The position numbers were made by a program, and so were the translations under genes. This document shows, one piece after another, positions 13,983-16,751 of a stretch of DNA of 43,028 nucleotides; within the stretch, counting starts at the first letter, position 1, and every line of letters starts with the position of its first letter. The notes beneath the pieces are model-generated. The model was not told the DNA's origin, did no database searches, and was given only the letters and a program-made list of their open reading frames with translations. The stretch covers positions 1 to 43,028 of the forward strand of contig CANRAM010000002.1 of NCBI GenBank assembly GCA_947628605.1, in the 5' to 3' direction. The DNA comes from an uncultured Clostridia bacterium (GTDB lineage Bacteria > Bacillota > Clostridia > TANB77 > CAG-508).

Positions 13983-14741
13983 CTAAAAAGTACATATTTC
14001 TACATTAATATTAAATTTTGCAATGTTTGTTTTAATTTCTTCTATTTCTGCTTTAGAAATTTCTTCTTCTATCTTTATCATTTTTTTATTTAACGATTCA
14101 TATTTACTTTTCGCTAAATTATGAGTTTTAAATATTTCAACTTTTAATGGTTTGTATTTATCTAAAAATTCGTATATTTTACATAAGTTTTGTTTATTGT
14201 ATGTATATGGTTTAATTAGTGGTATTCTAAAAATAACTTGTTGCGTTTGTTCAAATATTGTTTGTATATTTTTCATATACAAATTTATATCCCCTCCAAT
14301 TATTTTTTTACAGTTATTTGTATCTAATATTTTTATATCTATAATAAATGTATCTATATATTGTAGTACTACCTTTATATTTTCTTGTGATACCATTAAA
14401 GCTGTTTCAATGCACATATTTATTTTTTGTTTTTTTAATCGTTTTAACAATGGCTCTAATTCATTTATGTGAAGAAGCGGTTCACCTCCAGAGAAAGTAA
14501 CTCCTCCACCAGTTTCATAATATATTTTATCTTTCAAAATTTCTTTTTCTAATTCATTTAAAGTAACATTTTTTCCGTATATACCTTCTATATTATTTTT
14601 TATATATTTTTCCTTTTCAAATGATATGTTCTCTGGGTTAGCACACCATTGGCAATTTAAATTGCATCCTTTTAAAAATATTGTTGTTCTAATTCCCGGC
14701 CCGTCGTTTAATGAAAATCTTTGTATATTTGTTATTAACAT
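13983..14741 (-). CDS. Glycyl-radical enzyme activating protein (radical SAM)
   Basis: LNDGPGIRTTIFLKGCNLNCQWCANPE (CX3CX2C) and GGVTFSGGEPL; 252 aa, the size of PFL-AE. Confidence 0.85.
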   Translation of the reverse strand: MLITNIQRFSLNDGPGIRTTIFLKGCNLNCQWCANPENISFEKEKYIKNNIEGIYGKNVTLNELEKEILKDKIYYETGGGVTFSGGEPLLHINELEPLLKRLKKQKINMCIETALMVSQENIKVVLQYIDTFIIDIKILDTNNCKKIIGGDINLYMKNIQTIFEQTQQVIFRIPLIKPYTYNKQNLCKIYEFLDKYKPLKVEIFKTHNLAKSKYESLNKKMIKIEEEISKAEIEEIKTNIAKFNINVEICTF

Positions 14742-14750
14742 TTTTTCTCC

Positions 14751-16751
14751 TTACATTTTTCCTTCATTTTTTAACGCCCTTTGTATTATAACTTCTTTAT
14801 ATTCTTCTGGCAAATCTTTAAAATATGCACTAAATCCCCATACTCGAACAATTAAATTTGGAAATTGTTCTGGGTGTAATTTTGCTTCTATTAATGTTTT
14901 ACTACTTAACACATTCATCTGCATTTGGAAAAATCCAACTTTAATGCTTAATGTAATAAAATCTATAAATTTTTGAAAATTGTTTTCTATAAAATCTGGT
15001 GCAACTATAAAGTCTACTACATTTCCATTGAATCTATGACCAGAATAATTTAGTTTTGAAGCAAATTGTATTAACTCTGTGTATGCATTACTGCTATCTG
15101 TTGATATATGTACTGTAAATGGCTCTTTATCTTTTCTTCCGTCTAATGATGCATCTGTTTCTTCCGCTTCTGTAATATAACTTGGTGAACTTAATCCAAA
15201 TTTTAACTTCCCATTAAATTTATTTCTATACTCGCTGAATATTGTATCAACAAACCCTGTAATGTAATTTGTTAAATTTATTATTTCTTCATTATCTACA
15301 CCATATTTATTTTCTGTATTTTTCAAAACATCTACTATATCGTTTCTTTCATTAAAATTGTTTTTTCTTGCATTGTTTAATTCTTCTAATGTATATTTTT
15401 GTTCATCAAATACAAATTTTTTTATATTTATTATGGAATTTACAACACTAGCAAGACCTACTGAGTTAACTCCATAATGATTGTATTTCGCCCCTTTTAT
15501 AGATATATCTTCTAACTCACATCCACTCGTTAACAAAGATAAATATGAATCAAATTGCCATTCTATTTTATTTAGTGTACAAAATACTTCATTGCAATAG
15601 TCTTTTAAATAATTTGTATATTTTTGTAATATTTCGCCTATTGTATAATTTTTATTTAAATCCTCATTTGCCAACATTTTATTAAATGGTTTTAGAAAAT
15701 TAATTGTCATAATATTTGTTTGGTCTAAACTATATTTCGGTATTATAGGTTCCCAACAGGCAGCTGTTACATAGTTATATGCATCTTGTTTTTCATATCC
15801 GAAATCTATTAATTTAGGTATTATTACATCATCATTTGAAAATAATGGACACCCAATACCTGTTTGAATACATTTTACTGCAAGTTCTATCAAATCCTTT
15901 GGCATATTATTACTGCTAACTCGTAATAGAATTTTTGGGTCTGGTATTTGTAACTCCTTTATTGTTTCAATAAAGATATATGTTAATTCATTATAGAAAT
16001 ACGTATCATCATCATTTTTTCCACCTAATATAATAATTTGACCTGTATCTCCCATTAGTACGTTGCTTTTAAACCAATAATATTTGTGTAAGGTTAAATA
16101 AAAGTCTGTTATTAACTCTTTTGTATTCTCTTTTGTTAATATATTTTTTTTGATATCTTGTTCATATAATGACTGTAAAATTTTATCTAACCTACCTAAT
16201 CCATTTAGCCTATGTCCTGTTTGCCATAATACTTGGTTATAAAATAAAATACGTTGCATACCCGAGTACAATGTTGTTGCTTTTGATGTTTTTATTTCTT
16301 CTAAGTTTTCTAATATTTTTTCTTTATATTTATTATTGCTATTTTTTATTTCTTTTTCTATTTTATTTATTAATCTTTTTAAAGAGTCTATTAATTTTTT
16401 ATTATTTTCATTTTCAAAATCGCTTAAAGAAGTGTTTAATAGTCTTTCATAATCCACTGTTATATTTCCTATTATTCTATTAGTTTCTATTGGTTGTTTT
16501 AGTGTATCTATGCTATATACGAAGTGGTTATTTATGTCTACTTCTACTTTTGTATTATTTATTAATTTATATATATTTTTGCTTTTATACAATCTAATTT
16601 GCTTTAATTTTTTTAAAGTTTCTTTTTTGGTTTTATATAATCTTTTATGTTTATTATATATCTTTTTGAATGTATTTATATATGGCAATATGTTTGTTTT
16701 TGTTAATACTATTTTTAAATATTTCTTAATAATTTTTTTCATTTTATTCAC
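14751..16751 (-). CDS. Divergent short glycyl-radical enzyme (PFL2/dehydratase-like)
   Basis: C-terminal glycyl-radical motif LIVRVWGFSAYFKDL, candidate thiyl Cys loop VTAACWEPIIP, and PDPKILLRV. It is 666 aa. Confidence 0.8.
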   Translation of the reverse strand: MNKMKKIIKKYLKIVLTKTNILPYINTFKKIYNKHKRLYKTKKETLKKLKQIRLYKSKNIYKLINNTKVEVDINNHFVYSIDTLKQPIETNRIIGNITVDYERLLNTSLSDFENENNKKLIDSLKRLINKIEKEIKNSNNKYKEKILENLEEIKTSKATTLYSGMQRILFYNQVLWQTGHRLNGLGRLDKILQSLYEQDIKKNILTKENTKELITDFYLTLHKYYWFKSNVLMGDTGQIIILGGKNDDDTYFYNELTYIFIETIKELQIPDPKILLRVSSNNMPKDLIELAVKCIQTGIGCPLFSNDDVIIPKLIDFGYEKQDAYNYVTAACWEPIIPKYSLDQTNIMTINFLKPFNKMLANEDLNKNYTIGEILQKYTNYLKDYCNEVFCTLNKIEWQFDSYLSLLTSGCELEDISIKGAKYNHYGVNSVGLASVVNSIINIKKFVFDEQKYTLEELNNARKNNFNERNDIVDVLKNTENKYGVDNEEIINLTNYITGFVDTIFSEYRNKFNGKLKFGLSSPSYITEAEETDASLDGRKDKEPFTVHISTDSSNAYTELIQFASKLNYSGHRFNGNVVDFIVAPDFIENNFQKFIDFITLSIKVGFFQMQMNVLSSKTLIEAKLHPEQFPNLIVRVWGFSAYFKDLPEEYKEVIIQRALKNEGKM

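Follow-up and report, generated by a model that had tools for sequence, protein, structure and literature searches.

The window analysed here, a stretch of 43,028 nucleotides (nt) from an uncultured Clostridia bacterium (contig CANRAM010000002.1), carries the genes of a glycyl-radical enzyme (GRE) and of its activating enzyme (activase) within a glycopolymer gene cluster. The GRE gene (14751 to 16751, minus strand) is an intact open reading frame (ORF) with a GTG start and encodes 666 amino acids (aa). The cognate activase (13983 to 14741, minus strand) is a radical S-adenosylmethionine (SAM) enzyme of 252 aa with a CX3CX2C motif (CNLNCQWC at residues 26 to 33). In the GRE, residues 330 to 335 (AACWEP) include the Cys loop A331-C332-W333-E334-P335 and residues 636 to 644 (RVWGFSAYF) the glycyl-radical loop R636-V-W-G639-F-S; further landmarks are N96, H180, N346, and a basic N-terminal extension (residues 1 to 60). 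The two genes are tightly packed between those of Wzx, a flippase of the MOP type (16753 to 18198, minus strand; Polysacc_synt, 1e-29), whose stop codon is 1 nt away from the start of the GRE, and Glf, a UDP-galactopyranose mutase forming UDP-galactofuranose (UDP-Galf) (12864 to 13970, minus strand; GLF, 1.8e-82; TIGR00031, 423 bits versus a cutoff of 304). Only 9 nt separate the GRE from the activase and 12 nt the activase from glf. A sequence-only reading of this DNA had described both ORFs, with their coordinates, motifs, and spacing, and each of these features was found in place.

Both genes are real and intact and not chance ORFs. The GRE matched the Pfam families PFL-like (4.6e-61) and Gly_radical (PF01228, 1.2e-11), while the activase matched Fer4_12 and Radical_SAM and scored above the cutoff of the NCBIfam model for GRE activases (TIGR02494, 228 versus 174 bits). 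An AlphaFold2 model of the GRE, built with 56 family sequences as input, reached a pLDDT of 91.2 and a pTM of 0.91. When searched with Foldseek, it matched more than 40 solved GRE chains with a probability of 1.0 and query-normalised TM scores of 0.75 to 0.79. The hallmarks of the GRE superfamily are thus present: the RVxG[FWY] loop, a catalytic cysteine on the Cys loop, the ten-stranded barrel fold, and an adjoining CX3CX2C activase. As the sequence-only reading had also pointed out, the protein is shorter than PFL2-type members (666 versus 765 to 850 aa in the solved structures) and its N-terminus is rich in lysine, with a net charge of +20 over the first 60 residues. The trait is shared by the family, in which the 60 N-terminal residues have a mean net charge of +13.6 and the remainder of the protein one of -13.2. 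This basic stretch is moderately amphipathic and could serve to dock the GRE on an anionic membrane or a partner.

We searched 5.8 billion proteins for homologues. The best 120 family clusters at 90% identity were all 595 to 706 aa long and 47 to 67% identical, and almost none of them carried a name; a profile search of representatives placed about 90 clusters (at 50% identity) above 500 bits. The GRE missed every curated GRE-family cutoff of NCBIfam by 3- to 30-fold. It scored 229 bits with the model of glycerol and propanediol dehydratases (TIGR01774, cutoff of 678), 182 with the PflD-type model (NF007437, cutoff of 1109), and 168, 158, and 168 with those of CutC, HypD, and HpfG (cutoffs of 1050, 1100, and 1000, respectively). 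The scores were lower still for HPAD (114 versus 1150 bits), IAD (103 versus 1100 bits), and pyruvate formate-lyase (PFL; TIGR01255, 29 versus 994 bits), and the NrdD models gave no match. We saw no small-subunit genes. The solved GREs are 20 to 23% identical to the GRE, the nearest being PflD (8ID0, 8YJO), glycerol dehydratase (1R8W), CutC, propanediol dehydratase, and YbiW. Judged by these scores and identities, which rule out its membership of a known GRE subfamily, the GRE clusters with no characterised enzyme and belongs to a large unnamed family.

Residue conservation was read from an alignment of the 56 family sequences and from a broader one of about 130 sequences. In the first half of the protein, N96, W176, H180 (at least 90%), D189, K228-S229, D235, and Q238 were invariant or nearly so. 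The same was found in the second half for A331-C332-W333-E334-P335, N346, D537-G-R539, H548, S550, N575, N577, D580, and R636-V-W-G639-F-S. The RVWG glycyl-radical loop and the C332-W-E334 motif were invariant among the 56 sequences, and the latter was kept in nearly all of the wider representatives. R181 could be ruled out as a conserved phosphate-binding residue, since its position is variable in the alignments. As the catalytic cysteine is preceded by an alanine (A331-C332) instead of forming the Cys-Cys pair of PFL, PFL-type chemistry is likewise ruled out.

The alignment of the family profile to solved structures equated C332 and E334 with C433 and E435 of glycerol dehydratase and with C431 and E433 of PflD, and H180 with H281 of glycerol dehydratase. 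The position of H164 of glycerol dehydratase, part of a G-H-x-x-x-D-Y motif common to PflD and propanediol dehydratase, and of the corresponding histidines of the latter two, was occupied by the invariant N96. In glycerol dehydratase, H164 protonates the leaving hydroxyl (PMC13450708). D445 of PflD aligned with the invariant N346. In the printed alignment with glycerol dehydratase, D447 fell within a 5-residue insertion absent from the window family, and it probably corresponds to the N346 position through the common "hD" motif. The family has therefore kept the radical machinery and the CXE base and has lost the acid histidine of the dehydratases, and probably the aspartate too. With asparagine invariant in place of the histidine, and probably of the aspartate, the GRE is not a canonical diol dehydratase, and its membership of that group is ruled out. 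The Cys loop had initially been described as of the dehydratase type. The loop itself is there, but it is not specific to dehydratases: every GRE eliminase and isomerase has a CXE motif, among them YbiW and PflD, which break a C-O bond of a sugar ring (PMC13450708), and its presence in isomerases and in C-N and C-S lyases means that it marks no dehydratase.

All 44 full-length activases of the family carried the CX3CX2C motif near residue 30, with a median length of 256 aa, and none of 45 family activases had the ferredoxin-type CX2CX2CX3C motif. They are similar in size to the PFL activase, yet they scored best with PFL2-type activase models.

PflD and YbiW (8ID0, 8YJO, 8ID7) were the closest characterised relatives both in sequence (8id0, 5.7e-44 with the single sequence and 9.3e-78 with the profile) and in fold (Foldseek TM scores of 0.78 to 0.79). 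These enzymes are C-O lyases of 1,5-anhydromannitol-6-phosphate and 1,5-anhydroglucitol-6-phosphate, and they act on a sugar without external cofactor or reductant through the same CXE Cys loop as the window GRE. They are nevertheless only about 23% identical to the latter, which is some 100 residues shorter and has the basic N-terminal extension. Moreover, PflD and YbiW are catabolic ("anhydroglycolysis"), with downstream aldolases, whereas the window family is found in biosynthetic glycan loci, and they keep the GqGH histidine and the hD aspartate, opposite which the family has an invariant asparagine for the former and probably for the latter. With its low NF007437 score, the asparagine at the histidine position, and the absence of an aldolase or catabolic setting from the 53 loci surveyed, the GRE does not belong to the GRE isomerases (PflD, YbiW, and HplG); it does share their CXE feature. 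The B12-independent glycerol and 1,2-propanediol dehydratases (1R8W, 5I2A) share with the GRE the CXE loop, the equivalent of H281 (H180), and the barrel. They differ from it in having activases with a ferredoxin insert, which the activases of the window family do not have, and a context of microcompartments or 1,3-propanediol dehydrogenase, which was not that of the window GRE.

We retrieved 52 genome loci, called their ORFs, and clustered the neighbouring genes, and the counts below are over 53 loci. The activase was present in 44 of them, a single cluster of Wzx, which includes the Wzx of the window, in 38, and Glf in 25. Two clusters of family 2 glycosyltransferases (GT2) were found in 25 and 18 loci, and GT111/DUF4422 proteins in 13. 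Other recurring neighbours were GT4 enzymes, GT2 with DUF2304, DUF2142, LicD, pyruvyl transferase, Bac_transf, and TagF-like proteins with IspD-like ones. We then considered the 33 loci in which the GRE had over 4 kb of flanking sequence at either end and called a locus glycan-related when it had at least two glycan-assembly genes. This was the case for 32 loci; the activase and Wzx were each present in 30 of the 33 and Glf in 19. The GRE was most often directly preceded by wzx (20 loci), followed by a GlfT-like GT2 (5), another GT2 (4), GT111 (4), GT4 (2), and Glf (1), while the gene directly downstream was the activase in 39 of 49 loci. The median gaps to these neighbours were 9 and -4 nt. 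None of the 53 loci had a fermentative or microcompartment operon, or an aldolase, beside the GRE. The survey thus shows that the orthologues do not reside in metabolic operons unrelated to glycans.

The hosts were strict anaerobes throughout, mostly from the gut. They comprised Clostridia, Lachnospiraceae (including Hungatella hathewayi, C. aerotolerans, Murimonas intestini, and Pilosibacter fragilis), Bacilli/Erysipelotrichales, Synergistota, Muribaculaceae (Bacteroidota), and many Methanobrevibacter. The occurrence of the family in Bacteria and in Methanobrevibacter indicates that the module has crossed the boundary between bacteria and archaea by inter-domain transfer. In five Methanobrevibacter loci (L018, L023, L031, L044, and L046), the GRE module stands at the edge of the glycan cluster. 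Beyond it lie genes for a Methyltransf_30 protein and an archaeosine tRNA-guanine transglycosylase and, in four of the five, a Flavodoxin_5 protein, which could be the electron donor of the activase; where the contig was long enough, NAC was also among the housekeeping genes past the GRE. Five loci had a GRE without an adjoining activase gene: three of Pilosibacter fragilis and relatives (L036, L037, and L038) and two of Methanobrevibacter (L023 and L031). Their activase may be encoded elsewhere or shared. In two of them (L036 and L038), a protein of 659 aa whose N-terminus is HAD-like is encoded after the GRE in place of the activase. A conserved protein of about 322 aa, c13 (e.g., L006:12820-13788), is encoded between the activase and Glf in L003, L004, L006, L010, L012, L030, and L051. 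It had no match in Pfam or NCBIfam and, given its DxD-like motif (KLDEDIF), may be either a GRE partner or a glycosyltransferase not yet described.

Some members of the family are fused to the proteins encoded next to it elsewhere. The profile search revealed three clusters, less than 50% identical to each other, of GT2-GRE fusions of about 988 aa (P0133, P0134, and P0152), in which a GT2 of the GlfT1/rhamnosyltransferase-like type forms the N-terminus, and two clusters of Wzx-GRE fusions (P0180 with 1125 aa and P0209 with 1053 aa), whose Wzx part is of the same cluster as the Wzx of the window. On the contigs of P0133 and P0180, the two that were examined, each fusion is encoded by one gene, which the activase gene follows directly. 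P0133 lies in a glycan locus of the ABC-transporter type with LCP, GT4, and GT2 genes. With the GT2 encoded just upstream of wzx in the window (18242 to 19192), the GT2 domains of P0133 and P0134 shared 38 to 39% identity (E values of 4e-50 and 8e-52). In L053, an 870-aa fusion of ferredoxin-type Fe-S domains, an FrhB/FdhB-like domain, and a polysaccharide pyruvyl transferase (11809 to 14421) is encoded directly downstream of a GT2-GRE/activase pair. The fusions are the strongest evidence that the GRE has its physical place in glycan assembly between the GT2 step and flipping by Wzx, and both types favour an action at or beside the membrane.

These results bear on whether the enzyme could be an ordinary catabolic GRE, a PFL or a diol dehydratase, that lies in a glycan locus by chance. 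One homologue is labelled "formate C-acetyltransferase" in databases, and in sequence the GRE comes closest to PflD and glycerol dehydratase, as such a reading would have it. Yet the curated cutoffs are missed by a wide margin, the Cys-Cys pair of PFL is absent, and an invariant asparagine stands opposite the histidine of glycerol dehydratase, and probably opposite its aspartate. Genes for microcompartments, aldolases, or fermentation never adjoin the GRE, in contrast to the nearly constant glycan context. That context, together with the GT2 and Wzx fusions, rules out a catabolic hitch-hiker, a reading to which we attach a negligible probability. The interpretation given by the sequence-only reading, of a GRE working in a glycan operon, is supported by the analysis: neither of the two outcomes that it had named as refuting, a usual residence of the orthologues in operons unrelated to glycans or a tight clustering with a characterised GRE, was borne out. 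We consider a glycan-biosynthetic role of the enzyme highly probable.

The N..CWE..N..RVWG signature extends to distant short GREs scoring about 300 to 450 bits, and the contexts in which these were found were again related to carbohydrates. One (L055) was encoded with an iron-containing alcohol dehydrogenase resembling glycerol-1-phosphate dehydrogenase, NagB, NagA, and a sialate O-acetylesterase (SASA), and others with two sugar ABC permeases and a short-chain dehydrogenase/reductase (SDR) (L057), a SorC-type sugar-binding regulator (L059), or a GT4 and a pyruvyl transferase (L056). A further one (L060) lay in a GDP-heptose-type pathway (GmhA-, HddA-, HddC-, and HAD-like proteins) with a GT4, an SDR, and a flavoprotein (PRK07208) resembling UDP-galactopyranose mutase. 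The GREs of L055, L057, and L059, whose loci are sugar-catabolic, and that of L060, in its cluster for heptose-nucleotide biosynthesis, look like further uncharacterised subfamilies of carbohydrate-active GREs. The theme that recurs in the clade is sugars with an exocyclic glycol (Galf, heptose, and sialic acid) and furanose-forming, mutase-type flavoenzymes, which is circumstantial evidence for a sugar substrate clade-wide.

The characterised GREs with a CXE loop act mostly on small molecules (glycerol, propanediol, choline, isethionate, and hydroxyproline), and LicD, TagF-like, IspD-like, or pyruvyl transferase genes occur in some of the loci. Both observations would fit a GRE that makes a small non-sugar building block, such as an aldehyde from a diol, an amino alcohol, or a phosphono or sulfo compound, which is then attached to the polymer. 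However, no gene for handling such a substituent (LicD, TagF, a kinase, or a cytidylyltransferase) is conserved with the GRE, whose constant partners are glycosyltransferases, Wzx, and Glf. A fusion to GT2 or Wzx makes little sense for a soluble small-molecule enzyme, and the relatives of the clade occur in sugar-handling contexts. We therefore regard a small non-sugar product as quite unlikely and a sugar as the probable substrate of the GRE.

The genes between about 9.5 and 32.2 kb of the window are all on the minus strand and form one 23-kb cell-wall glycopolymer cluster of the LCP/Wzx type. In the order of transcription, it starts with the LCP ligase, GT111/DUF4422, a GT4, MBOAT, an AlgX-like SGNH protein, and VanZ. 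These are followed by the Bac_transf initiating transferase, two GT2s (the second one split), a Wzy-like membrane protein (split), another GT2, Ugd (split), a TupA-like ATP-grasp protein, and the GlfT1-like GT2, then by Wzx, the GRE, the activase, and Glf, and finally by RmlD, RmlA, RmlC, and RmlB. The genes from the LCP ligase to the TupA-like ATP-grasp protein span 19195 to 32212 (minus strand). The GT2 directly upstream of wzx (18242 to 19192, minus strand) is of the GlfT1/rhamnosyltransferase-like type, and the four rml genes of the dTDP-L-rhamnose pathway (9525 to 12860, minus strand) make up the downstream end. The TupA-like ATP-grasp gene (19195 to 20046) adjoins ugd (20051 to 21341), which suggests an amino-acid-amidated uronic acid in the polymer (teichuronopeptide-like), and the pair of MBOAT and AlgX-like SGNH genes (26453 to 28971) suggests that the polymer is O-acetylated.

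Three genes of the cluster are split by frameshifts: ugd, encoding UDP-glucose dehydrogenase (20051 to 20458 and 20505 to 21341), the gene of the Wzy-like membrane protein (22221 to 22823 and 22883 to 23530), and that of one GT2 (23534 to 23899 and 23805 to 24260). The junctions lie outside long homopolymers, and the matching metagenome contigs (rabbit gut, at a low depth of about 3 to 5x) showed no indel variants. The splits may be assembly errors or else true pseudogenes or phase-off states. Among the sequencing runs, only these low-depth metagenome DNA contigs matched the locus, with no RNA evidence. A tract of nine T (18348 to 18356; A9 on the coding strand) lies within the GlfT-like GT2 gene beside wzx. 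It is the longest A/T homopolymer of the window in a scan for A/T runs of at least 9 and a possible site of slipped-strand phase variation. Upstream of the cluster, the ORF of arginyl-tRNA synthetase (32429 to 33958) stops early, with its DALR anticodon-binding domain matched at 54 of 117 positions, and may be another case of frameshift or truncation. Past this gene, just outside the upstream boundary of the locus, is a tyrosine recombinase (XerC/D-like, Phage_integrase family; 34129 to 35010). The window has a GC content of about 25% and carries a SpoIIM gene outside the glycan locus, both of which point to a low-GC organism of the Clostridia type; its DNA stems from a rabbit gut metagenome.

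Galactofuranose is the best candidate for the sugar on which the GRE acts. Glf was encoded at most three genes away from the GRE in 23 of the 53 loci. The linkage took at least four arrangements (GRE-AE-GLF, GRE-AE-x-GLF, GLF-GRE, and GLF-GT111-GRE, where AE is the activase) and was seen in Clostridia, Bacilli, Lachnospiraceae, and Methanobrevibacter. DUF4422 proteins have the GT111 fold of UDP-Galf transferases (WbbM and PamA; PMC12269835), and the one encoded in the window (30344 to 31102, minus strand) is a second Galf marker of its locus. Such a marker (Glf, GT111, or a GlfT-like GT2) was present in 33 of the 44 loci with at least 8 genes. We put Galf forward tentatively, as a substrate that is plausible without being probable.

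The substrate, its identity as Galf, the type of reaction, and the membrane association of the GRE are what we infer in the following proposal. The activase would use its single [4Fe-4S]/SAM site to generate a radical on G639, which would move to C332. The C332 thiyl would then take a hydrogen atom from a hydroxyl-bearing carbon of the sugar, while E334 of the CXE motif would deprotonate that hydroxyl. The resulting ketyl radical would expel or shift the neighbouring C-O substituent, and the return of the hydrogen atom would complete the formation of a deoxy-carbonyl or isomerised sugar, with no need for an external cofactor. The likeliest substrate would be the galactofuranose unit supplied by the adjoining Glf, with its exocyclic, glycerol-like 5,6-diol as the target; this hypothesised substrate is chemically akin to the vicinal diol on which glycerol dehydratase acts. 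The mutase equilibrium is unfavourable toward UDP-Galf. Were UDP-Galf itself the substrate, an irreversible step would also pull this equilibrium. Alternatively, the GRE could act on the lipid-linked repeat unit in the interval between the addition of Galf by the GlfT-like GT2 and flipping by Wzx. The basic N-terminal extension would keep the GRE at the membrane beside these two proteins. We see about an even chance that the GRE and the activase form a dedicated module of the Wzx/Wzy-type, LCP-anchored glycopolymer pathway of anaerobes, which performs radical C-O chemistry, probably on Galf, before export.

The proposed chemistry can be set against two known kinds of radical sugar transformations. 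Class III ribonucleotide reductase is an established GRE that is anabolic and acts on a nucleotide-linked furanose, its thiyl radical attacking the ring carbon beside that which loses the hydroxyl, and it requires formate or thioredoxin as reductant. It belongs to another branch of GREs, and we saw neither NrdD-type features nor a reducing Cys pair in the window GRE. The radical-SAM enzymes of sugar tailoring (DesII, AprD4, and BtrN) deaminate, dehydrate, or oxidise sugars through ketyl-type intermediates, using the 5'-deoxyadenosyl radical directly and usually one SAM per turnover. In contrast, the GRE system stores the radical on a glycine and would turn over catalytically, and only its activase is related to these enzymes in sequence.

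Another sugar could take the place of Galf. The GRE might make a new nucleoside diphosphate (NDP)-sugar from a pyranose NDP-sugar other than Galf, for instance by radical deoxygenation, ring contraction, or epimerisation of a UDP-, dTDP-, or GDP-hexose, and pass it to the fused or adjoining GT2. Glf would then be a frequent neighbour merely because Galf is common in such polymers. The GT2-GRE fusions fit the channelling of a labile donor sugar, about 40% of the well-flanked loci have no Glf nearby, and one of the distant subfamilies resides within a heptose-nucleotide cluster. Nevertheless, the linkage of Glf to the GRE is tight in both Bacteria and Archaea despite differing gene orders, and no one other NDP-sugar pathway is conserved throughout the surveyed loci. 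In addition, the Wzx-GRE fusions are better explained by an action on the substrate of the flippase than on a soluble precursor. This alternative thus seems unlikely to us, although less so than a small non-sugar product.

Several observations weigh against the proposal made above. Glf was absent within 10 kb of the GRE in 14 of the 33 well-flanked loci, and no Galf marker was found in 11 of the 44 loci with at least 8 genes, mostly those of the most divergent homologues (39 to 45% identity), so that some family members may act on something other than Galf. The module has no reductase or dehydrogenase as a conserved companion, and a carbonyl product would accordingly persist in the glycan, which is rare. 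The active sites of GREs are usually buried and small, and a UDP-sugar or a lipid-linked glycan might not fit into them. The asparagine (N96) in place of the general-acid histidine, and probably N346 in place of the aspartate, argues against a simple diol-dehydratase mechanism. Finally, with three glycan genes frameshifted, the locus of the window may be less than fully functional.

A recent review of the superfamily distinguishes formate lyases, decarboxylases, X-succinate synthases, eliminases, isomerases, and aminoacyl-radical enzymes among GREs and makes no mention of polysaccharides, UDP, or nucleotide sugars (PMC13450708, June 2026). According to the same source, all characterised PFL-like GREs are bacterial, and they are catabolic (PMC13450708). 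A full-text literature search likewise found no report of a GRE in glycan biosynthesis, although subscription papers were largely outside its scope, so that this is no proof of absence. Both agree with the earlier claim that no characterised GRE works in the biosynthesis of glycans or nucleotide sugars. The window GRE is hence an enzyme of a known kind in a new functional setting and with a distinct active-site signature.

With slightly less than even confidence, we propose that the family is the founding member of a biosynthetic class of GREs. These would be catalytic radical tailoring enzymes close to the membrane. While the cell wall or capsule is being assembled, they would turn a furanose, either Galf or a relative of it that has an exocyclic glycol, into a deoxy-carbonyl or rearranged sugar not described before, and horizontal transfer would have carried the module among strictly anaerobic Bacteria of the gut and Methanobrevibacter. 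Since cultured carriers exist (Hungatella hathewayi DSM 13479, Clostridium aerotolerans DSM 5434, Murimonas intestini DSM 26524, and Pilosibacter fragilis), the question is directly testable, and the short activases without ferredoxin insert may be easier to handle in vitro. If the proposal is right, it would give the first functional assignment for an archaeal PFL-like GRE and would extend the GRE superfamily into biosynthesis, with a new, anoxia-only route to modified sugars. Gut anaerobes, including methanogens, would then be predicted to display a surface sugar new to structural glycobiology, which would bear on immune recognition, phage receptors, and the interaction of these microbes with their host.

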